A DNA stretch of 32,000 nt from positions 150,001 through 182,000 of the forward strand of contig CP006913.1 of assembly GCA_000503875.1 (NCBI GenBank). The letters are read 5' to 3'. The first letter of the stretch is position 1. Every line of letters begins with the position of its first letter. Source of the stretch: Candidatus Saccharimonadota bacterium (GTDB lineage Bacteria; Patescibacteriota; Gracilibacteria; Absconditabacterales; Absconditicoccaceae). Both the position numbers and the translations under genes were made by a program. Shown here piece after piece: positions 3,825-31,544 of the stretch. The notes below the pieces were generated by a model. It had not been told where the DNA came from, ran no database searches, and was given only the letters and a program-made list of their open reading frames with translations.

Positions 3825-6596
3825 CTAATCTTTCATTTTACATTTACTAATTTCAAAGTTTAATAATTCAATTTCTTGTTTTATTTTGGAGATTTCATCT
3901 TTTTTTTGTTGGATTATACTATTGTCAGCTCCACTTGTATTAAGCTCTTGAACAAGATGTTTCAAATGTTGCATATATTCTTCTTTTTCTTGAAGTTGTT
4001 TTTGTAACAACAAGATGCCAGAAATACTAGGTTTGGACATAGCTTTTATTCCTATGGAAATATCAATAATGTCTTCTTTTTTGTAACCACAAGGGACTTC
4101 TTCATGATGAACAAGGTAAATAACATCTTCTGCATGTAATGTTTTTTTAAATAAGGATTCATTGCTTCTGGCAAATTTTATAAAATCTTGATTGGACCTG
4201 ATAAACAATCATACTACATCATGTTTTTTAAGTCCTAATCAGATTTTCATAGTTGAAAATCTATCTATAATTTCCATAAATAATGAGATAGAATAATTCT
4301 TTTGTATACTTGCAAAAGCTTTCAAAAATCAATTACTATCAATGTTTTTTTCAAATCAGAAAATATTTCATAATTCGTTGGTAAGTATTGGAAGATAAGG
4401 ATGAAGAAAAGATACAATAGTTTCTACAATACATAAACAAATATTACTAGAATGTTCAGATGGCGCAGATTTTATAAGTTCCAAATATTTTGAAGAAAAA
4501 TCTTGATGAATAAAATCAAAAACATTATGTACAAAAGTGCCTATTTGTTTTGGTGATTGTAGTTGTTGATACTCTTCTACAAGCTTAGTTAATTTAGAAA
4601 TAATTCGTCAATCAAAAGCACTAAATGTTGATATATTTTTTTCCAAGTTTTGTTGGATCTTTTTGTAGTTTATTGCCTTTGATCAATCAAAAAATGTTGT
4701 TTTAATATATCTACACGCATTCCAAAATTTGGAAATTGATTGATCCCATTCAGTAAAAATTTGTGAATCATATGTCTTTTCACTATCAGCTAAGGAAAGC
4801 AAACTTACTCTGATACAATCAGGATGATATGATTTTGTGATAGAAAGCTCGGCAACAGGTAAATTATTAGAATCTTTTTCGTTTTTTAGAGAAGGCAAAA
4901 CATGAATAGCTTCCAAAAAAGAATGGCCTAAATTATATTGAGCAAATAAAATATTTTTGATAGCTATTTTTAATGCATCTTGTTTGCTACAAAAAGTAAG
5001 AAGTTGGTTAATATCAGTTTTTTCTGCTTCTTGTAAAAGCATAGCTATTGTTGAAAAGTCATAACTGATGACTTGTTGATATTGCTGGATATCTTTCATA
5101 TCCGGATCAAATTTTTCAAAAGCAAAATGATATTTTTCATGTGCTCATTTTTCTAAACAAAAAGCATCATCTAAAATATCCAAAAGTTGGCTTACATTCT
5201 TTTCTAATGATTTCTCTTTATCAAGATTTTGAATAGCTTTTTCTAATACATCGAATTCTTTTTTTGTTTGAGGATATATTATTCCAATAAGAGAAAATAA
5301 CTGAGTAAACGATACTTGATCATGTGTATCGAAAATCATTGTTATAAATTCTTCTGCAGAAAATGTTGGTGGAAGTAGGTGATTAGAAATACAATGAAGA
5401 ATAAATAATCATAGTGCTAATCCTTGTTTAATTCAAACTGTTTTGTATGCCTCTTGTAATCGATTAGCATCCAAAATAAAAGTTCACTTCGTATTTGATC
5501 GTAAAGGAACAGGTACTCATGTTTTTTGATGAGCAGAAGCAATTCGATAAGAATTATCAATATAATCACGAGTAATTCCTGTTGAAGAAATAATTGCTTG
5601 ATTAAAAAATGATTCTATAGCCTCATCAGGGATTTTTACAAAAAATCCTTTCCAACTACGAAATATAAGATGTTCTTTGCTTTGTTGACAAACAGGTATT
5701 GTTCCTGTAAAGGATTCTGTATTGGTAAGATTTCCTATATCAGATAAGCTTTGTATAATATTAGAAAAAAATTCTTCAACAGATTTTTTTGCAAATAATC
5801 CAGCATTTTCTGTGAAATATCAATCTTTATCAATAGCATATGTATCAATTGGTAAGTTATGATCTTTGGCGATAGCCAATCATAATTTATCATGACCAGG
5901 AGTAACTCTATAAACACCACCATATCTAGTAAAATCAGCTCTTTCATCGATAATAATAGGAATTGTTTTGTTGATAATAGGAATAATGGCTTCTTGTCCT
6001 TTCAATTGTTTTGCCTTTTTATGTTGTGGATGAATAGCTATAGCAACATCCCCAAAAATAGTTTCAGGAGATTCTGTCATAACATCTAAAGAATGGTTTT
6101 TTGTACTAACAAAATATTTAATAGTATAACGATTCTTTTTATTTGAAATATGCTCTACTAGATCAGAAGCAACAGGTGTTTGATGTTTTGGGCTTCGATA
6201 TACAAGAAAACGATCTTCAAAAAGAGTCCCTTTGCGTAAGTGTTCTGCAAAAAATTGTTGAAGCGAAAAAGCAAAAGCAAAATCTTGCGGTATTTGTAAG
6301 CCAGGAATTAAATTAGAAAGTCAGAATTGTTTTAATTGTTTTTTTAAAAAAGAAAGAGAAGTATGGCTTTTTTCCTTGGTATCATGTAATGGATCCGGTA
6401 GGAAAAATCCTCACGAAAGAGGTTCTCCATAACGAATAGTATGAATAGTATCTAGCAAAAATAATCTAAATATTTGTTGGATATCAAAAGCATTTGTATA
6501 TTGCTCGGGAAGAAAAAAGAAAGGATGGTGTTGAGAAGAAAGTGATGAGTAAGAATCTATTTTTGTTTGTTTATATTGTTTTGGAAAATCACTCAT
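3825..6596 (-). CDS. valS: valyl-tRNA synthetase homologue (class I aaRS fold; HIGH and KMSKS signatures not recognisable)
   Basis: All minus-strand track ORFs 3825..4208, 4683..5099, 5145..5339, 5880..6080 and 6411..6596 share one frame. I translated the gaps 4209-4682, 5340-5879 and 6081-6410 and found only TGA, no TAA/TAG. ValRS blocks present: TESPETIFGDVAIAIHPQHKK, GGVYRVTPGHD, DGRIISKL..SSKYLELIK, KFWNACRYI, HPYLPILTNEL, C-terminal coiled coil. ATG at 6596, TAG at 3825-3827. Confidence 0.8.
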
Positions 6597-6654
6597 ACGC
6601 AGAGAAGATTGAAATAAAATGCAGGGATTATTTATTTAAGAAAGAGAGCCTATA

Positions 6655-8784: not shown

Positions 8785-8917
8785 TGTCAATAATGAACTA
8801 TAATAAAAACAGAAAAAATATAGGAATATAAAACAAAAAATCAAATCAAAAATTTGACAAAGAGCATATTTTTGAGTATAATTAAGCAAAGAAAATTTTA
8901 ATATGTATTATATTATT

Positions 8918-9415
8918 ATGAAAAAAATATTTGCAGCTTTCTTATTTTGCTTGATCTCTCTAGTAAACTTGAGTGTTTTTGCTGAACAACAAAGTCGATG
9001 ATGATATGGAAATGATCCACTTGAAGTGCTTGATAGAGTTGTTGGAGAAGCAAACAAAGATGTTCAATTTCAGGAAACTGCTTTGGATAATATAACTGAC
9101 AAAGAAGGTAGTTTTCAGGCTCAATATAAAATATCTAATACGCTTGATTACTTGAGAATAAATATAGCACCTTATCTGCAATGGGCAGTATATATTTGAC
9201 TTGTTGTCGCAGTAATTTTGATCGTTTATAATGGATTTTTGATGGTTACTCATACAATCAACAAGGAAGGAGATTTTGGTAAAGTAAAAGCAAGAATTTG
9301 ATATATTGCTGTTGGTGTTTTGTTGCTGACATGATTTTATGCAATCATCAAATTGGTTGTAGGTTTGATAAATTCTATATTTTGATCAGGTCCTTCAGGG
9401 GATACTGGGTTTTAG
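8918..9415 (+). CDS. TrbC/VirB2-type (type IV secretion-like) pilin-family protein, single hairpin
   Basis: ATG 8918. Signal peptide MKKIFAAFLFCLISLVNLSVFA, soluble segment, then two TM helices separated by a short charged loop (..WAVYIGLVVAVILIVYNGFLMVTHTINKEGDFGKVKARIGYIAVGVLLLTGFYAIIKLVVGLI..). Six in-frame TGA. TAG at 9413-9415. The track shows only an antisense ORF here. Confidence 0.65.
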
Positions 9416-9432
9416 GTAATAATAGTATATAA

Positions 9433-10389
9433 ATGATTAAGAAAATAAGTAAAGCAGTAATTATGATGATAACATTGCTAGGTATCGGTATGTGAGCAAT
9501 GCATGCAGTAGCACCATCATTTGATGATAATTTTGCTAATTATCTCACTGATAAAACTCCTGATCAATACGGAAGAGTAGAAACGGTATTTAGTTTTTCA
9601 AATTGTATTGATAGAAATCAAAGTATTATGGAGAATGTAAGAAATCTTTTCTATCCAAGTACTTTCAAAAGTGACAATCAATGTTCTTTAACAACAGGAG
9701 GATTGCTTTGGGATATGCTTAGAGTAATTACTTTTGCATTGATATTTGTCTTTATTGTAGTAGCAGGAATGAAATTTATTATGAATGGAACATCCTGAGA
9801 TGAAGCAAAAAAATGAGCAATGAGTCTTGTCTATATTGCATATGGAGCATTTCTTGTTTTTGGCGCAATTTGGATTTTGTGATACGTCCTCAATATAGAA
9901 AACGTGAAATGATCAACAGATCTCGTAAATAGTGTACAGAATAATTTATTTCTCCAAATTTTAAGTTTTTTCAAAGTATTGGCCTTTTTCCTAGCTATTA
10001 TTATGATGGTAGTATCATGATTTAAGATGATGGCTGCTATGGACAAAGAAGATAAAGTCAAAGCAGGAAAGCAATGAGCAATAAATGTAATTGTCGCATT
10101 GGTGTTTATCAAAATTGTAGATTATATTTTTTATATTGCACAAGCATCTGATTTCGCACAAAAAGCATCAACCTTGGTTTTGGATGTAGCCAAAATTCTT
10201 TGATGGATTCTTGGTATTTCATTTGTATTGGGGCTATTTTACGCAGGATATCAAATGTTCCTCTCTGGTGGAGATGAAAAAGCAATCAAAAAGACACAAT
10301 CAATTCTGATCAATATCGTTATCGTTTCTCTTGTTCTTTTCTTATTCTTACTCTTGGTGTACCAAATTTTCAATGAATTTGTAGGATAA
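9433..10389 (+). CDS. membrane protein made of three tandem TrbC/VirB2-like pilin hairpins
   Basis: ATG 9433, signal/TM MIKKISKAVIMMITLLGIGM. Three successive TM-charged loop-TM modules with loops NGTSGDEAKKG, AAMDKEDKVKAGKQG and LSGGDEKAIKKTQ. About 9 in-frame TGA. TAA at 10387-10389. Track ORF 9499..9798 is its first third. Confidence 0.65.
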
Positions 10390-10452
10390 TTTAATTTGGT
10401 GTATAATAAAAAATTCCCCGTAATCCACGAGGAGTTTTTTTAAATTATTTTT

Positions 10453-11004
10453 TTATTTCATTACTTTTTCCATTATTTTTTTCCAATCAATATTTTTTTC
10501 CAAAAGCTTTAATGCTTGGTCGCGATCGAAGGCGAGGGTTTCTTCTCCTACCTGATCAACGGGAACCTTGATGAGAATTCTTGGAATCTGGAATTTCTGA
10601 GCAACATAGTCGATCGCGAAGCTTTCCATGTCGACAACATAGTTTTCTTCGTTTAATATTTTCTCAAAAACTGGCGTTTCACTACAAAAACAACTGCTTA
10701 CAGGAGCGAGGAGCTGAGGAATTGGCACGATGCTTTCTTTTCCTGTACTGGCATTGACAATACGGGCAACTTGTACTAATTTTTCTTTATTTCAAACATA
10801 GCCACACACTCCTACATTCAAAATGAGATCCGGAATTTCTTCTTTATGACTCAAGAGATAATTTGTTAATGAAAACATCGTTTCGTAATTTCCTATTCCT
10901 GTCGTGAAAAAACTAACTGAAAGTCAAACAATATTCAGATTTTTTATATTATTTTTAATTATTTTCGTTTCTCCTCACGTAGCGGCACATACTAGAATTT
11001 TCAT
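10453..11004 (-). CDS. PNP/UDP-1 family nucleosidase (MTA/SAH-nucleosidase or futalosine-hydrolase-like)
   Basis: ATG 11004: MKILVCAAT-G-GETKII...FTTGIGNYE..LILNVGVCGYV..VVDMESFAIDYVAQKFQIPRILIKVPVD, the typical nucleoside phosphorylase superfamily pattern. Three in-frame TGA upstream of track ORF 10453..10728. Confidence 0.6.
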
Positions 11005-11104
11005 AGATAATACGTTGAATAGGTAAATACCCTTATATATCTATTTAAAGTTGCAATTTCAAGTTAACTGCTTATATTCTAAAAAATATTTTACTTCATA
11101 TTTA

Positions 11105-23340: not shown

Positions 23341-24201
23341 TTATCCGAAAAAGTTTGGATTGATAAGTTGTAAGATAACTCCAGATGCTCCGAGAAGCGC
23401 TAATGCAGAAATAACATTACCTATTATTTTTCTTCATTTTTGAGCTCATTCTTCAGTTCATCAAGATGCAGAAATCATAACTCCACCAATCAAAATTCAT
23501 ACAAAACTAATCAAAAGAATAATAGAAACAAGTAATCTACTTAATCCTCACATAAGCACTGGGAAAGCTGTATTTTCATCAACAACAAGTCCAACACTAG
23601 GTTGAGTAGTAGAAGCTTTCTTATAAACAATACATTGTCAAATAAAAGGGACATTTGTATTGAGTAATATTCCTTCGCAACAAACAGTATCTTTTAGTTC
23701 AATATCGTAATAGGTTTTTTTACAGCATTTGCCTTGAGAATTCAGAAGTCATCAGGGACATGGTTCTTCATCTTTGTTTTTATTATCTTCACCCGTAATT
23801 TCACTTGAACTAGATGCACTTCAGTCTTTTGGATCAGTTGAGGCAGCAAGTGTTCCAGTTTGTGCGACACCTTTTTCTTGACCATCAACAGCACCAGTTG
23901 TAATTGTACATTTACCATTTTCCCATTTGTTAGTGGTGCATTCGCAGATATGACATTGTAGTCATTTTGGACACCCTCATACAGTAGATAAAGTACTTTT
24001 TGTATTATCTTTATTGCAATAGGTTTGCAGTCTTTGGCTACTTTCTGGATATTCACAGGTATAGAAATGTGATCAATGTGTAGCAGGTATTGTTTCTTGG
24101 GTTCTACAATCAACTCAATCAACTCAAAAGGTAATTCATCATCACAACAAAAAACTTATTCACAAAAACAAAACTAAACTATAGAATATATTTTTATACA
24201 T
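23341..24201 (-). CDS. secreted Cys-rich protein with C-terminal TrbC/VirB2-like pilin hairpin (paralogue A)
   Basis: Frame found by reading TGA as Gly (19 in-frame TGA out of about 36 Gly). MYKNIFYSLVLFLGISFLLGGGITFG signal peptide, about 20 Cys, then TAFPVLMGGLSRLLVSIILLISFVGILIGGVMISASGGTEEGAQKGRKIIGNVISALALLGASGVILQLINPNFFG and stop. Standard-code ORFs here are in the wrong frame or strand. Confidence 0.65.
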
Positions 24202-24220
24202 ATGTTTTTTTGAAATTAAA

Positions 24221-24850
24221 TTATCCAAAAAAGTTTGGATTGATAAGACGAAGGATAACTCCAGATGCCCCTAAAAGAGCCAAAGCTACAATAACTTTTC
24301 CGATAAGCGCTTTTCCTTTGGATGCTCAACTATCATCACCACCAGAAGCAGAGATCATTACTCAACCAGCTAATATGCCTACAAATCCCATCAAAATAAT
24401 CACGGTAACCAATATTTTAGTAAGTCCTCACATAAGTATAGGAAAAGCAGTTCTTTCAGTAACTTTACTTTCATTTGCATCGTTAGATCAATCATCTGTA
24501 GATCATTTAGATAGTTCTATACAATTTCCTATAAAAGGTACATTGGTATTGAGTTGGATTCCACAACAGACTCATGTATCTGTACAAGGAACACATCATT
24601 TTTTTTCAACTGCTTTAGTTCAATCTGGACAGATCAATCATTTAAATCAAGTGTCTGCTGTTTCTAAATTTTTGTCCTCTGTAGTATATGTCTTTGGTCA
24701 GTATTTTGTATTATCAACATTTGTTGCAGTATTTTGATAAATATTCGTACTTGGCGGAGTAAGCGTAATTTCAGCAGCTGGATTTTGTGCTAATGTAATA
24801 TTTCCAAGCATCAAAAATCCTATACCCATTATTCAAACAATTTTTTTCAT
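24221..24850 (-). CDS. secreted Cys-rich protein with C-terminal TrbC/VirB2-like pilin hairpin (paralogue B)
   Basis: ATG 24850: MKKIV-G-IMGIGFLMLGNITLAQN signal peptide. 12 in-frame TGA out of about 28 Gly. Shares CCxGIxLNTNVPFIGxCI and the whole C-terminal hairpin (..GGVMISASGG..ALALLGASGVILRLINPNFFG) with paralogue A. Confidence 0.65.
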
Positions 24851-24878
24851 CGAAGAAAAATTCATTATAAGAAGTTAA

Positions 24879-25319: not shown

Positions 25320-25410
25320 AACTAGAAATTGTCAGAAAATAAATTTGCAAATTTAACGCTTTCAGTCCGTCATAATCAAATACTATAAAGGATTGAAAAC
25401 ATTAAAAACT

Positions 25411-25491
25411 TACCGAGGAAGGGACTCGAACCCTCAAGCCTTACGGCATACGCACCTCAAGCGTACATGTATACCATTCCACCACCTCGGC
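25411..25491 (-). tRNA. tRNA-Leu (anticodon GAG), class II with long variable arm
   Basis: Minus strand reads GCCGAGG-TG-GTG..CAT-G-TACGC-TTGAGGT-GCGTA-TGCCGTAAGGCT-GAGGG-TTCGAGT-CCCTT-CCTCGGT-A. The anticodon stem is perfect and the T-loop is TTCGAGT. No CCA is encoded. Position 1:72 would be a G-U pair. Confidence 0.85.
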
Positions 25492-25561
25492 ACAATGTAA
25501 ATTGATACTAATCTTCACCAAAGAATCAAGAGAAAAGGAAATTATTACTCATAAATAAAAT

Positions 25562-26551
25562 TTATAAAACTTTAGTTAAAACTTTTTGCATTTTTATAAT
25601 TTTCTTTTGATAAGGGTATACTTTGGTTTTTGTGCCAAGAAATGATGCAATCAAAAAAAGATGTAATCTCGTACTAATAACAATTTCAGCTCATTTCACG
25701 ACATCAAGAAATGTTGTAAAATCACGTTCCCAATCCAATAATTCAAGGTGGGTATTGTATTTCAAAAGGTCATAATATTTTCCATCATTATATTCTATAT
25801 TTTTTCCTTTACTCACAGGAACATAGTAAATATGAAATCCTTTTTTTACGTACTGTTGAATATCATTTATAATATTTTCCAAAAATTTTTCTCCATTTTT
25901 ATTTACGTTGACAATAATATATTTCGCTTTTCCTATTTTGCTTTTCTCTTTTTTCCACTCCCACGCAAAATATGCCGTATCCATAAAGAATTCGACATCT
26001 TTATATCAATATATTTTCAATGCGTCAACCGTTTCGAAGTCTCTTGCATAAATATGCGTTGTTTTTTGAAGAAGATAATTAAATAATTTTATATTCAGAT
26101 TTTTGTTTGGTATTTGTATTCATCCCATAAGATAAATATCGACTTTCACGAGAGTTTTTTTCATCAATATTGGTAATAAGGAGACGAGTCGGTATCGATA
26201 AGAATTAGGATTTTCCTCCGTGAGAATTTCTCAGCCACCAACAATTACACTATGAATCTTTCTATATTCCCAGATTTCACTCCATCATTGTTTCCAGATA
26301 TAACGTAGTAATGACCTTACTCCCTTGGGGATTTCTGTGAGAAAAGTGATATCTGAAATATCCACAAATTGCTTGAGAAATCCCCTCAGCCACTTGGGAT
26401 CATATGCTTGTATCCATATTTTTTTGCCTTGTTGTTGAAGAAGTTTGATTGTCCCTGCCAAAATTAACTCGTCTCCTAAATTTTTGTAGGATCGGTTCCC
26501 AATAATCAATACGTTCGTTCATTGGATATTCAGATTATTATTTGTTTTCAT
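25562..26551 (-). CDS. polysaccharide pyruvyl transferase (CsaB-like)
   Basis: ATG 26551. Track ORFs 26285..26509 and 25691..25984 share one frame; I translated the gap and found only TGA. Motifs NRSYKNLGDELIL, VIVGGGEILTEE, ISTRLHLFLIASFLGTKTKVYPYQKK. TAA at 25562-25564. Confidence 0.7.
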
Positions 26552-26556
26552 ATAGA

Positions 26557-26579
26557 GAAAAAGGGGCTAAATTGCCCCT
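26557..26579 (-). terminator. rho-independent terminator after the giant membrane protein gene
   Basis: Minus strand reads AGGGGC-AATTTA-GCCCCT followed by TTTTT. Confidence 0.75.
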
Positions 26580-26614
26580 AGTATAGTAGTTATTTCTTTT
26601 GTTTCAATGGATTT

Positions 26615-29600
26615 TTATTGTTGAGGTGTTGTTGTTTGATGAATTGTTCTCCATCGATTGTTTAGATATGATTCTAGAAGAAGTTTATTTGATCTTTCAT
26701 CAAATTTCTCACTATTTTTTGTTAAACCATCTTCAGAGAAAACTCTAATTGTCTTTTCTTTTCCATAGAATTCTAGGGCTCATAAGTAGGTTGTGTCAAA
26801 AGCATCATCACCGATATCTCCATTTGTTTCTTTGTCGATAGTAACCGATTTTGCTTTGTTGATAGCATTTGTTACTTTAAATAATTCTTCATAAGTCTCA
26901 AAAGACAGAGATAATCAAGTTATTTTTTTTGAAGTAAGATCAATAGGTGTTGATTGTTCATATGTCTTCAAAGAAACATTTCCTTTTTCATCTTTTTCAA
27001 ATTTAATATTTTTTTCTTCAGAAGGATGCTCTTTATAAAAAGCTTTGAATCCATCTATGATTTTTTTTCTAGTATCAGAATTTGTAAAGTTTTCTATAAC
27101 AGGAAAGAATCATTCTGCTTTATCTTGCATTAACCAAAGATTATTGAGATATTCTATATAAAGTTGTTTGTTGCTTGTTTCAGTTAATTTAGGAGAAACA
27201 GTTCTCAAACCACCTCGCCACAATCCATCAGAAACAGCTGCCACATCTGGTCTTCGATTTCGTATAGATTTATCATCAAATATTATATCATCATTAGCAA
27301 TTTTTTGACCAAAAGGATCTATTATTTTTTGTGATTGTATGTTTTCAAATGTGCTTCTAATTTTGTTGGTTAGATTTGCTGTTTTAAACATATCTTCAAA
27401 GTTACCAAAATCTATATTTAGACCAGCAACTTGATTTTTATTGAAATCAATAGGCGTTGTTTTTCTATAACTGTTTACGTTCAATGTATTTCCAGCAGCA
27501 ACTAATTCAACTCAAATAGTTTTGATGCTAGGATATTTTTGGTAAAATTCTTTATAATCTTTTTTGATTTTTTCTTTTGCTGCTTCAGAAAGATCGAGTT
27601 TGTTTATTTCATCTATATCTTTTTGTAATTTTTCTTGATCTATAATATTTGCATCAATTTCTTCTTCAACTTCTTCTGTTGTGTCTAATGCAGCACTTCA
27701 AGTAGCGACAGTAGGAATTACAAATGATTCGTTACTATTTGTTCATCCTTTTCGATGTTTCTGATTATTTAAATAATTAACATAGGCATCTTTGCTTGCA
27801 TCACCTGCAAGTTGTTGAGATATTTTTTCTAATCCATCATTAGAAATCATAGTCACATCTTGATTCCATACTTTATATCGTTCAGTATTATCAAAAGTTA
27901 TTCTGCTACCTACTCCAGCTATTCACTTTTCAATATAGAAAGGTTTATCTGTTTTTATAGGTGTAAGATTTCTAGTTAAGTTCTTTATTCTGTTTGTTAA
28001 ATTAGCTACACGAAGAAGTTCCTTAGTCATAGGAAATGTCATGGCAGATCCATTTTGATTTACAAGTCCAGGAATTGATTTATTCCCAAGATCCAATGGA
28101 GTAGATTCATTGTGTGTAGTCAAAACAAGTTTTCCATTTTGTTTTTCTAGATTAATATCTGCTTTTGAATCCATATAGAATTGATAAACAGCTTCATGAA
28201 GTTGCTTTTTTTCATCTTCAGTGACATCTGTAAGCGCATCAATTTGGGTATCTAGTTTTGTTTTTATTTCAGGAGCAATATCTACTGCTTTTTCAAATAC
28301 ACCTAGTGATTCTAATTCGGCTAATGTAGGAGAACCTGTTTTTACAAAAGATACAATTCTATCGTCCACTTCTTTGTTGGTTTGATCATATCAATTGTCT
28401 ATCATATGTTTGTTAATAAGTAGTGCTCTTTGAATAACATCATTAGCTAGTTTATCAAATTTTTCTTTTTCATTTTTTGGATCACTTAATGTTGCTCGAT
28501 CTAGACCGACACCTTTCAAAGCAAAATCTACAATGCCTTTTTCATCTTCTTTTCCTATGTTTTCCAAAAATTCTTTTCTCATTTTTGCTTGATTGATTTC
28601 ATCAGCTGTTTTTCCTGTTGGATTTTGAATAATATTCTTATAATTAATCATTTGTGCTTCTCGAATATCTGGTTTAATTCTCATTTTTCAATCGCTTCAT
28701 AATTGAAGCATATCTTTCATTTTTCCGTATGTTTCTTGTCCAAAAAGAAGTGATGCTCAACTTACAGATTGTGCAAGTTGTTCTATTCAAGGTGATTGAG
28801 CACCATTTTCTTTATTATTATCTCCTTTAATCCATCCAAGTATTTTATTAAAAGTAGTTGCTCATTCTCATCCTTTAAACAAATCTTGAGGTCTTCCAGC
28901 TGTAAAAAGAAGAAGTCATGCAGCTCCTCATAACCATCACCAATTGCTAGCATCTTTATAGCCATCTTTTTTAAACATTATATTCCATGTACTTTTAATG
29001 GCTTTCCATCAAAGAAATATTCCTCCAGCAAGAAGTGCAACATTCCCAAAAGATTTATAAAAATTTTGACCTCTCTCCGTGGTATTTTGAATTCATTTTG
29101 ATGCATTATCAAGATAAGAAAATAGTCATTTTTCTGTATTTTGATCAATATTTTCATTTACTGAATCGTTATTAGTACCTGTTACTGTTTTTTCTTTATT
29201 ATCTGCATCTCCTGCGATATTAACATTTCCTCATTGATCAACACCTGCAGGATTTGTGATAACAATATTTTTTGCTAAATAAGGATGTTCGTTTTGTAAG
29301 TTCTTAAGAAGAGTAGTAGTGTATTCGTATGCTTCTTTGTTTTTTGGTGTATAAGGATATTTAGTAGGATCTTTTTTGTTATTTACAATATCTTCAAGAT
29401 ATTTTTGAAAATCTGCCAAATCTTCTGCGCGCATTTGTTCTAAAGTCGCGTTTCCAGTTATTGCATCAACCTTGGCTTGTCTTTTATTGTAGCTTTTTAT
29501 TGCGTTTAAATAATCTTTAGCATCTTTTTGACTAAATTTAGTTGCATCTATGTTGTATGCTGGAGTAATATCAGCTGTTCAGCTTCTTAAAGCTTCATCT

Positions 29601-30304
29601 TGTGATTCAAAGAGAGGAACGTTATCACTAAGTTTATCTAATTGTTGAGAGATATTCTTTAATTTATTTTCGATAAGAGGATCAGAAATATCTAATTCTC
29701 TCATTTTCTTTTCAACATTTCTTAGATCTTTAAGGCGTCTTTCTGATTCATCTTTATGTATTTCTCGATATCTTCTTTCTTGTTTAGATCTGGCATATTT
29801 TGCAGTAAGTCGAAATTGTTCTCTTCTTCCACTATCTTTTTGATCATCAAAAAACTTTTTGAGTTCGTTAATTCTTCGATTGATAACAGTTGGGTTTGTT
29901 GTTCTTTCATGATGAGCTAAGATCTCATTACGCAAAGCCTTTATTTCGTTTGAAGTACCACGAGTAATAATAAGTTGATCTTTTTCTAATCCTGATAAAC
30001 GAACAGCAATATTCTCATCTACCTGTTTTTGTTGTTCAAGAAAACTTAATATAAATTTCTCTACATCATAACCATTTGCTAGCGCAAATTTTGTTTCTTG
30101 TTTGTTGTTGCCCAAAAGAGTAAAGATGTAGCTATCTCAATTTTTTTGTATTTTAATATCTTTGAGATCTTTTACATTATTTTCATTTAGGGTTAGCAAA
30201 AACTGGGCCTCATTGTTTATAAAACTCAATGGGGCAGTGTCTTTTACCTCTGAGATCTGGATTGTCTTACTATCCATTGTGTAATCGATAAATAAAAGTT
30301 TCAT
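26615..30304 (-). CDS. giant orphan membrane protein (about 1229 aa): N-terminal coiled-coil region, central TM hairpin, repeated C-terminal modules
   Basis: Track ORFs 30137..30373, 29579..30115, 29231..29434, 28391..28684, 27923..28369 and 27110..27484 all share one frame. I translated every gap and found about 23 in-frame TGA and no TAA/TAG until TAA at 26615-26617. Start taken at ATG 30304 (alternative 30277), downstream of the preceding terminator. Confidence 0.7.
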
Positions 30305-30334
30305 TACCAAGTATATTCCAAAAAACTTTTCAAT

Positions 30335-30368
30335 CAAAAAAAATCCACCTTTTATATAAAATGGATTT
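30335..30368 (-). terminator. probable rho-independent terminator between the 197-aa gene and the giant gene
   Basis: Minus strand reads AAATCCA..loop..TGGATTT followed by T8. The loop is long and AT-rich. Confidence 0.45.
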
Positions 30369-30399
30369 GACAATTTATTTTTAAATGATTTAATATGTT

Positions 30400-30993
30400 T
30401 TAGCTATAAAGTTCGTTTTTTACCTGTAAAATAAATTTTTCACGCTGCTCTTCATCCAAAGATGGAATATCGTATAGTTTATAATGATTTATGACAGCTA
30501 TCAAAAAGTCCATAAGAAGTGACGCATCCAAAGGGATATTGTCATGATATTTGATAGATAATTTTTTGATATAATTGATATATCATGTTAAATTCATGGG
30601 TTCCTTGGTAAGTAGTTCTTCAAAAACTCAAGAAATTCAGATTTTTTTTGCTTCTTGTATATAAAAAGGAAAAAAGAATCAGATTACTACCAATGTATTT
30701 ATTTTTTTTCTCAAATATGTTGTCCCTGTGGAAGGGTGTTTTGTTTTGAAAAAAAGTTCATATAAAAGTGTTATAAGTTTTTCATCTTTTATATTATTTA
30801 TAAGAAAAGTAAGAAAACTTGCCAATTTAGCATTAGCTTGTTTATCTTGCTGTATTTGTTGATGAACTTGTTTTGCCTGTTTTGATTCTTCCTGGATTCT
30901 TCTAGTAGCTTCTTCGGTTACTTTGTTGATATCTTCTCTAGGTGCTCATCCAATATCTAGTCCTTCTCAAAGGTTTCAAAATTCATTCGCCAT
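30400..30993 (-). CDS. hypothetical protein, 197 aa
   Basis: AGGAAAC precedes ATG 30993. MANEF-G-NL-G-EGLDI-G-GAPREDINK.., about 8 in-frame TGA, one hydrophobic segment (LVVIGFFFPFYI). TAA at 30400-30402. Absent from the ORF track because of TGA density. Confidence 0.5.
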
Positions 30994-31119: not shown

Positions 31120-31206
31120 GGTGAGGTGGATGAGTGGCCGAAATCAACTCACTGCTAACGAGTCAGACGAGTAATCGTCTCGCGGGTTCGACTCCCGCCC
31201 TCACCG
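31120..31206 (+). tRNA. tRNA-Ser (anticodon GCU), class II
   Basis: GGTGAGG-TG-GATGAGTGGCCGAAATCA-ACTCA-CTGCTAA-CGAGT-CAGACGAGTAATCGTCTC-GCGGG-TTCGACT-CCCGC-CCTCACC-G. It has the long variable arm and a canonical T-arm. Confidence 0.85.
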
Positions 31207-31440: not shown

Positions 31441-31446
31441 AGACAT

Positions 31447-31520
31447 GGCACCGTAGCTCAGTTGGTTAGAGCGCGCCTCTCATAAGGGCGAGGTCGGCGG
31501 TTCGAATCTGCTCGGTGCTA
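31447..31520 (+). tRNA. tRNA with CAU anticodon (elongator Met or lysidine-modified Ile2)
   Basis: GGCACCG-TA-GCTC-AGTTGGTTA-GAGC-G-CGCCT-CTCATAA-GGGCG-AGGTC-GGCGG-TTCGAAT-CTGCT-CGGTGCT-A. Cloverleaf complete. The T-stem has two G-U pairs and 1:72 is G-U. Confidence 0.8.
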
Positions 31521-31544
31521 AATTACCTAGAATGCCTGTCGCTG

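Follow-up and report, generated by a model that had tools for sequence, protein, structure and literature searches.

Some cell-wall and S-layer proteins that carry S-layer homology (SLH) domains are encoded next to CsaB, as in the csaB-sap-eag arrangement of Bacillus anthracis. In Absconditabacteria, which live as obligate episymbionts or predators, envelope biology mostly rests on unannotated genes, and unannotated proteins are the rule in this phylum. Large, lineage-specific, modular proteins that are tethered to the membrane and vary in their distal repeats are a familiar kind within the candidate phyla radiation (CPR). Here we examine the gene for a large modular protein in 32,000 nucleotides of DNA (hereafter the window) from Candidatus Saccharimonadota bacterium, which the GTDB places in the Absconditabacterales (assembly GCA_000503875.1, contig CP006913.1, positions 150,001 to 182,000 of the forward strand; coordinates below count from the first letter of the window). 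The gene is intact, its product carries a central hydrophobic hairpin followed by three homologous modules of a large family, it lies between a gene for a conserved 197-aa protein and a gene for a CsaB-like polysaccharide pyruvyl transferase, and it has evolved as a mosaic. Our tentative proposal is a non-enzymatic scaffold or adaptor, anchored by its hairpin, that together with the 197-aa protein helps to make or anchor a pyruvylated glycopolymer of the envelope and owes its specificity to the modules.

A single gene with TGA read as glycine

The window has a G+C content of 32%, and TGA encodes glycine in it, since TGA positions coincide with invariant glycines of housekeeping proteins. In polynucleotide phosphorylase aligned to PDB 5yjj, these are the glycines of RREGRP and of the KH-domain GxGG; the Walker A motif GESGAGKT of an ATP-binding cassette (ABC) protein and the HxHxDHxG motif of ribonuclease J likewise have invariant glycines encoded by TGA. 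Open frames of at least 150 codons amount to 8.7 kb under translation table 11 and to 38 kb when TGA is read through.

26615..30277, minus strand: coding sequence of the large protein (database protein P0001), 1220 aa, with 23 TGA codons read as Gly and a TAA stop at 26615-26617.

An earlier account of this DNA, made by a model from the letters and their open reading frames (the sequence-only reading), had fused seven fragments through about 23 TGA-Gly codons into one gene for a 1229-aa protein. The open frame on the minus strand from 26615 to 30403 reproduces this: read with table 11, it yields exactly seven fragments of at least 60 aa, and it contains 23 in-frame TGA codons. In-frame TAA or TAG codons, which would speak for several genes, were looked for and there are none. 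At the 23 TGA columns, glycine accounts for 68% of the orthologue residues. The gene is a single one because five full-length relatives exist, of 1225-1283 aa and 40-57% identity; full-length orthologues of the gene occur at eight or more loci (at least 8).

The start needs a small correction. All six proteins align from 'MDSKT...', that is from the ATG at 30277, which yields 1220 aa. The ATG at 30304, on which the length of 1229 aa was based, follows the -10 box of a conserved promoter by only a few bases and lacks conservation, being absent or out of frame in two related loci (L001 and L008). The start is most likely the ATG at 30277, nine codons further downstream. To call a protein of 1220 aa 'giant' is generous, given that the ten longest proteins of Vampirococcus measure 1392-4163 aa (PMC8080830).

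Domain architecture and the repeated module

The following parts make up the large protein, with AlphaFold confidence given as the predicted local distance difference test (pLDDT) and module matches as independent E-values (i-E) of a hidden Markov model (HMM) built from 17 module sequences.

29903..30277, minus strand: N-terminal alpha/beta domain, about aa 1-125; pLDDT 77-89 over aa 1-150; no signal peptide seen.
29288..29902, minus strand: highly charged region of long, coiled-coil-like helices, aa 126-330, from the AlphaFold model.
28892..29050, minus strand: Gly/Trp-rich two-helix hydrophobic hairpin with a basic connecting loop, aa 410-462; putative membrane anchor, from hydropathy and conservation.
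28238..28792, minus strand: helical domain after the hairpin, aa 496-680; pLDDT 66-87; conserved across a 16-sequence alignment (A3).
27728..28249, minus strand: module 1, aa 677-850; i-E 3.9e-56; hhalign E-values of 1e-25 against module 2 and 2e-20 against module 3.
27122..27628, minus strand: module 2, aa 884-1052; i-E 1.7e-59; the copy modelled with AlphaFold.
26624..27115, minus strand: module 3, aa 1055-1218; i-E 2.5e-57.

The three-part architecture with three degenerate C-terminal modules, as first read from the sequence, holds up, and every motif then quoted was found in the protein. BLAST self-comparison did not detect the repeats, so that profile-profile comparison was needed. When slices of the alignment were compared by hhalign, the three modules proved mutually homologous with a probability of 99.3-99.7% and E-values of 1e-20 to 1e-25, each pair sharing about 150 aligned columns at 27-32% identity; no other slice of the protein resembled them. 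The module HMM finds exactly three copies in the large protein and no other match in the window.

Modelled by AlphaFold from the module alignment, the module reaches a pLDDT of 81 and a predicted template modelling (TM) score of 0.82. Its fold runs through two helices, a three-stranded meander, a long helix, a beta-hairpin and three helices, and a Foldseek search against PDB and BFVD gave nothing at E <= 1e-3, with TM-scores of at most 0.3. The model of residues 1-680, built from a 16-sequence alignment, has a mean pLDDT of 63. It is confident for the alpha/beta domain (aa 1-150), for the long helices as far as aa 232 and for the helical domain (aa 500-680), and of low confidence over an N/T/Q-rich linker and the hairpin. 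Within the charged region the modelled helices span residues 129-154, 165-193, 202-232 and 250-298, with a pLDDT of about 80 up to aa 232 and low values thereafter. The domain after the hairpin is marked by the motifs GKMKIKP, FLExIGKxD and DLAL. Foldseek of residues 1-680 against PDB likewise gave nothing at E <= 1e-3, with CorA chains appearing only at E >= 1.1.

Among 135 module instances, the only positions conserved at 70% or more are F, A-L-x-N, P-F and Y-L-N, while His, Cys, Asp, Glu, Lys and Arg never reach that level. Because the module lacks a conserved acid, base, His or Cys, we infer that it is probably a binding or structural domain and not a catalytic one. The family libraries Pfam, NCBIfam, PHROGs and PADLOC were scanned with the large and the 197-aa proteins, 17 modules, 16 N-terminal halves, 28 homologues of the small protein and nine distant family members, and none of these scans reached a cutoff. 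For the large protein, the best Pfam score was 18.9 bits against a cutoff of 24.8, NCBIfam and PADLOC gave no match, and PHROGs gave only E >= 0.03. Sequence and profile searches of PDB with four alignments (A1, A2, A3 and A4) returned best E-values of 0.02-0.3, to coiled coils or designed proteins. Neither the N-terminal domain nor the domain after the hairpin nor the module has a counterpart among described families, solved structures or predicted viral structures. These remote-homology and structure searches, which the sequence-only reading had suggested be run per module, bear out its remark that no enzymatic signature is recognisable.

A conserved three-gene block

30400..30993, minus strand: gene for the conserved 197-aa partner protein, with seven TGA codons; the product has no transmembrane segment, Cys or known domain.
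30336..30368, minus strand: intrinsic terminator of the 197-aa gene, an 11-bp stem followed by U8, with a folding free energy of -9.3 kcal/mol; conserved across species.
30310..30337, minus strand: the large gene's own promoter, TTGATT-16 nt-TATACT; conserved across species.
26562..26607, minus strand: promoter-like site TTGAAA-16 nt-TATACT abutting a G+C-rich hairpin with a T-run; consensus matches only.
25562..26551, minus strand: CsaB-like polysaccharide pyruvyl transferase gene, third in the block (PF04230, E 9e-23).

Both the large protein and its upstream neighbour had been taken for orphans. Neither is one. An exhaustive profile search with the module returned at least 199 cluster representatives at E <= 1e-3, 99 of them at E <= 1e-10, with clusters counted at 50% identity. 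The 197-aa protein, whose gene lies on the minus strand as first described, has 31 homologue clusters at 48-96% identity, and its alignment picks up a further 61 loci in a metagenome scan; it is far better conserved than the large protein. No transmembrane segment or signal sequence was found in it, and profile searches of Pfam, NCBIfam, PHROGs and PDB gave no known domain and no tetratricopeptide repeat (TPR) match. A DUF3379 signal in 8 of 28 homologues, with a best E-value of 0.008, was judged too weak. 'Lineage-specific' remains apt. The members of the large-protein family named so far come only from Absconditabacterales, under the label 'hypothetical protein [Candidatus Absconditabacterales bacterium]'. 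The gene's absence from all relatives had been raised as a possible objection, and orthologues were found. A scan of genome contigs returned one locus, which says little about distribution.

The commonest form of the family is about 850-900 aa long, typically near 880 aa, and combines the same N-terminal arm, hairpin and helical domain with one module. Three modules occur in few members, and some (P0043, P0058 and the protein of locus L008) have unrelated C-terminal extensions. The one-module state is probably ancestral, with the source clade having three. One member, P0132 (L012, 7887-10838), is a 983-aa protein with one module on a contig for which the standard code gives correct translations, so that the module is not confined to TGA-recoded lineages. 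It lies in a chromosomal context (QueC/QueE, RF-1, FtsZ), and its N-terminus has a LysM-like start before the module that scores below threshold (17.2 bits against a cutoff of 20.9).

The order of small gene, large gene and pyruvyl transferase gene is kept in L001, L002/L003, L005, L006, L007 and L008, where the large-protein homologue is 887 aa long in L007 and 1109 aa in L008. In the metagenome scan, 31 loci have at least 2.5 kb of sequence downstream of the small gene, and 27 of these carry a family member directly 3' of it on the same strand (25 with one module, two with three). The CsaB-like neighbour noted earlier is real, and a pyruvyl transferase gene comes next after the large gene at 21 of the 24 metagenome loci with enough sequence. 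The small gene and a family member are also adjacent in L001-L009 and L014, and in L016 the pair has an ABC ATPase gene between its members. In L014, which belongs to a distant lineage, the place of the transferase after the pair is occupied by a lipoprotein-like and a LytR-CpsA-Psr gene. The synteny survey that the sequence-only reading had called for thus finds that the three genes form a conserved block.

Transcription signals lie between the genes. The DNA at 30310-30368 is conserved at the nucleotide level between species whose proteins are only 40-57% identical, and its translation yields a spurious conserved peptide, 'FGIYLVMKLLFIDYT', at the N-terminus of some database gene calls (P0002 and P0006). 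At 26562-26607, the -10 box abuts the terminator-like hairpin just before the start codon of the pyruvyl transferase gene. From its consensus matches, the large gene probably has its terminator here, overlapping with the promoter that serves the transferase gene; as the start would fall inside the hairpin stem, transcripts from this promoter would escape termination. A reading of the three genes as an operon is weakened by the conserved terminator and promoter.

Mosaic evolution

Recombination has made a mosaic of the large gene, whose distal modules exist in allele classes that diverge deeply. This follows from discordance among its segments and from the replacement of a cassette between two strains. 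While the flanking proteins are 72-82% identical among the species compared, within the large protein the N-terminal arm shows 38-57% identity, the middle segment 34-65% and modules 2-3 27-78%. Among the relatives, L006 is the nearest to the protein of the window in the N-terminal arm (57%) and the most distant in the middle (34%); L003 is the most distant in the N-terminal arm (38%) and the nearest in modules 2-3 (78%).

Two strains of one species, L002 and L003, are 99.5% identical in DNA over 9.7 kb and 97% identical after the stop codon. Between these stretches, positions 12629-13712 of L002 and 12629-13679 of L003 have no blastn similarity. The replaced segment is the last 1085 nt of the gene, comprising a spacer and modules 2-3, and stops at the stop codon. 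Both strains still encode modules 2-3, at 34% amino-acid identity, and the L002 copies match the module HMM at 7.5e-48 and 3.3e-36. The common allele of modules 2-3 is the best-conserved part of the protein between species, at 65-78%. A polymorphic-toxin reading was rejected, since the replaced cassette keeps modules 2-3 and no immunity gene is swapped, the downstream gene being 97% identical in DNA.

Probable membrane association and proposed function

The hairpin consists of two Gly/Ala-rich helices, at aa 410-427 and aa 446-462. Over 15-residue windows, hydropathy across the family is 1.5-2.5 in helix 1 and 1.2-1.8 in helix 2. About 27 diverse members retain both helices and the Trp/Lys residues that border them amid fast-diverging sequence, which makes the hairpin a likely membrane anchor. 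Of the earlier description as a central transmembrane hairpin, the two conserved hydrophobic helices stand, and their hydrophobicity is only marginal. No signal peptide was seen in any N-terminus of the family when these were read by eye. The N-terminus of the large protein, MDSKTIQISEVKDT, is hydrophilic, and the sole hydropathy peak lies at aa 409. A two-helix hairpin would place both large arms on one side of the membrane. With no signal peptide, the N-terminal arm of 400 aa should be inside, and the C-terminal arm as well if both helices span the membrane. The cytoplasmic face is therefore the simplest assignment for both arms.

In the proposal that we tentatively prefer, the hairpin would tether the large protein to the cell membrane, where it would act jointly with the conserved 197-aa helical protein encoded upstream. 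There it may serve as a scaffold or adaptor while a pyruvylated glycopolymer of the envelope is made or anchored, presumably the process in which the CsaB-like transferase, almost always encoded after it, takes part. With N-terminus in, hairpin, and C-terminus in, both arms would lie on the cytoplasmic face, the presumed site of pyruvyl transfer to lipid-linked precursors. The modules would be putative ligand-binding parts that confer specificity, which could be why they duplicate and are swapped as cassettes between strains. The cytoplasmic placement is supported by an N-terminal 400 aa made up of a folded domain and charged helices and by a partner protein that lacks transmembrane segments and a signal sequence. 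The envelope link draws on the conserved transferase gene and on the lipoprotein-like and LytR-CpsA-Psr genes that replace it in a distant lineage. The specificity role of the modules draws on their variable number (1 to 3), on the unrelated C-terminal extensions of some members and on the mosaic evolution. Gene integrity, the architecture, the homology and model of the module, the size of the family, the gene neighbourhood and the mosaic evolution are shown directly; that the protein is anchored in the membrane, on which side its arms lie, that its modules bind a ligand and that it is tied to a glycopolymer we infer from them.

Several observations weigh against the proposal. The 19-residue Kyte-Doolittle maxima of the helices are marginal, at 1.3-1.65 in helix 1 and less than 1.3 in helix 2, and AlphaFold confidence over the hairpin is low, with a pLDDT of 25-48. 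Across 31 family members, the inter-helix loop, 16-28 residues long, has on average 5.3 Lys/Arg against 2.5 and 1.8 in the flanks; by the positive-inside rule, so basic a loop would be cytoplasmic and both arms outside. Cysteine avoidance is typical of exported proteins in monoderm bacteria, and the large protein has no Cys in 1220 residues, where 9.6 would be expected from the other proteins of the window (P ~6e-5); its relatives have 0-5, low across the family. The protein also evolves much faster than its neighbours, as would fit an exposed one. The three genes appear, from their sequence signals, to be separate transcription units with their own promoters and terminators. Moreover, the block extends upstream to rpsP and rpmG at most loci, so that adjacency may reflect general synteny and not shared function. 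Finally, any binding partner or ligand is putative. The missing signal peptide and the basic loop would be compatible if the hairpin were an in-plane or monotopic anchor at the cytoplasmic face or, in the opposite way, if the protein were exported by a route other than Sec.

Alternative explanations

The alternative that survives best, although we regard it as unlikely, is a surface-exposed protein of host interaction or adhesion. The modules, and possibly both arms, would lie outside and attach to the surface of host or prey, or to the cell's own wall polymer, with diversifying selection driving allele exchange. A cytoplasmic basic loop with both ends outside, the exclusion of Cys, the fast mosaic evolution with strain-level cassette replacement and the adjoining envelope genes are all in keeping with it, as is the weak LysM-like start of P0132, although that match is below threshold. 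Large membrane proteins of Vampirococcus have been proposed to mediate host attachment (PMC8080830). Without a signal peptide in the family, such a protein would however require Sec-independent export of a folded and highly charged arm of 400 aa, its partner looks cytoplasmic, and the common allele of modules 2-3 is too well conserved between species to be hypervariable. The earlier suggestion of a candidate host-interaction factor is thus favoured by the loop, the lack of Cys and the pace of evolution, and disfavoured by the missing export signal and the cytoplasmic-looking partner.

It is rather improbable that the protein is a soluble cytoplasmic one in which the Gly/Ala-rich pair forms a buried core or an in-plane, peripheral membrane-binding element. 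The shortness of the helices (15-18 residues) and their low 19-residue hydropathy suggest this, and it would reconcile the basic loop with the missing signal peptide. However, hydrophobicity and the aromatic and basic borders are kept in the roughly 27 diverse members, the 15-residue hydropathy of helix 1 reaches 1.5-2.5, and the pair is left unpacked in the AlphaFold model.

An exported, translocator-like effector with a dedicated chaperone is more improbable again. Here the small helical protein would keep the hairpin protein soluble; export of the large protein would need no signal peptide, and its hairpin would end up inserted in the host-cell membrane. A small helical gene immediately upstream of the hairpin protein at 27 of 31 loci, long N-terminal helices ahead of a central hydrophobic hairpin, and the missing signal peptide fit this picture, and SR1 relatives are epibiotic predators (PMC8080830). 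Against it stand the lack of homology to any translocator, TPR chaperone or secretion-system component, the lack of an identified secretion apparatus in the 32-kb window, a basic loop that would need to cross the target membrane, and the terminator and promoter between the two genes. If it were true, the locus would encode a translocator-like device of a predatory or episymbiotic CPR bacterium whose novel-fold modules set host range, which would explain the exchange of cassettes between strains.

We give very little weight to a membrane-anchored anti-phage or conflict system in which variable modules sense invaders. The mosaic evolution and allelic cassette replacement would suit it, but there is no PADLOC match and no nuclease, ATPase or other effector domain, and the gene is a single-copy positional orthologue in a housekeeping neighbourhood and not in a defence island. 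Nor was any similarity found in viral contigs, phage genomes or plasmids, which also leaves a phage or plasmid origin of the large protein without a match. Lastly, the idea that several genes or a decaying pseudogene were fused by TGA read-through can be dismissed, as nothing but the 23 in-frame TGA codons speaks for it and it is refuted by the glycine code established on housekeeping genes, the glycine kept at TGA columns, the full-length orthologues at eight or more loci and the absence of TAA and TAG.

Other features of the window

Several further features lie on either side of the block. Divergent tRNA genes, tRNA-Ser(GCT) at 31120-31206 (plus strand) and tRNA-Met at 31446-31521 (plus strand), are located upstream of the 197-aa gene, and a tRNA-Leu(GAG) gene at 25410-25492 (minus strand) is found between the YqeY and pyruvyl transferase genes. 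Two adjacent paralogous genes at 23341-24270 and 24221-24874 (both minus strand) encode secreted-looking, Cys-rich proteins (14 and 6 Cys). A C-terminal unit (NTNVPFIG.CI ... FP[IV]LMGGL ... two hydrophobic helices ... LINPNFFG) is common to the two, and they look pilin-like by eye, with no Pfam or NCBIfam match.

Further away, a 318-aa protein at 9433-10389 (plus strand) contains three stretches of PF18895, a pilin family of the type IV secretion system (T4SS), at E 7.7e-13. It is preceded by a 170-aa protein at 8882-9415 (plus strand) with a weak TrbC/VirB2 match. A relationship between the hairpin of the large protein and the T4SS-pilin-like proteins of the window was rejected, the hhalign probability being below 1%. 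The region 10390-11030 (plus strand) has as its sole long frame an implausible Arg/Ser/Leu-rich peptide with five TGA codons, has no Rfam match, and may be non-coding or an undescribed RNA. A 924-aa gene with 16 TGA codons occupies 3825-6635 (minus strand). In L001, L002, L003, L005, L007 and L008, a conserved protein of about 950-1090 aa with faint PKD/TSP_3 matches is encoded within this syntenic block, some 3.4-7 kb upstream of the small gene; it makes a more conventional candidate for a surface protein in these genomes.

Significance

The analysis defines a conserved block of three genes, for a small helical protein, a putatively hairpin-anchored modular protein and a pyruvyl transferase. 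It also yields a new domain, about 165 aa long, whose confident model has no counterpart in PDB or BFVD. The block poses a topological puzzle, in that the large protein has no signal peptide yet combines a basic inter-helix loop with a lack of Cys. The near-identical strains L002 and L003, which differ only in modules 2-3, provide a natural experiment. Should a wall glycopolymer or a host surface prove to be their ligand, the modules would represent a new class of specificity domain in a phylum with hardly any characterised surface proteins. If they do not bind such ligands, the protein would be one more lineage-specific scaffold.

Comparison with known systems

Phage tape-measure proteins resemble the large protein as long helical proteins with Gly-rich hydrophobic segments. 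However, the large gene sits in a housekeeping chromosomal context conserved across lineages and has no match in viral contigs, BFVD, PHROGs or phage genomes. CorA has an N-terminal alpha/beta domain, long stalk helices and a transmembrane hairpin in the same order, but its Foldseek match is non-significant (E >= 1.1, TM-score 0.1-0.2), there is no GMN motif, and 750 residues follow the hairpin here. The T4SS pilins of the VirB2/TrbC and PF18895 families share two hydrophobic helices with a short basic loop; unlike the large protein, they are small and have leader peptides, and the large protein has no Pfam match.

The Inc proteins of chlamydiae also lack a signal peptide and have a bilobed hydrophobic hairpin that leaves both termini on one side. 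Their hairpins lie near the N-terminus and have short loops, whereas the loop of the large protein is 16-28 residues long and strongly basic, and there is no homology. Type III translocators (IpaB/SipB/YopB) with class II chaperones (IpgC/SicA/SycD) offer a resemblance only, in the small helical protein gene just upstream, the long N-terminal helices, the central two-helix hydrophobic hairpin and the missing Sec signal. They differ in that no sequence or profile similarity and no TPR match in the small protein was found, the C-terminal arm of repeated modules is much larger here, and the two genes have separate transcription signals. No type III system is known from this phylum.

SLH wall proteins differ from the large protein in several respects. 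Neither SLH (PF00395) nor another Pfam domain was found in the large protein, its modules or its relatives; by eye and hydropathy it has no signal peptide, and it has a central hydrophobic hairpin. The modules here are about 165 aa long, alpha/beta, C-terminal and usually single. The likeness lies in a large modular protein of envelope type encoded beside a polysaccharide pyruvyl transferase, with three tandem modules (here in the source clade) and alleles that diverge between strains.

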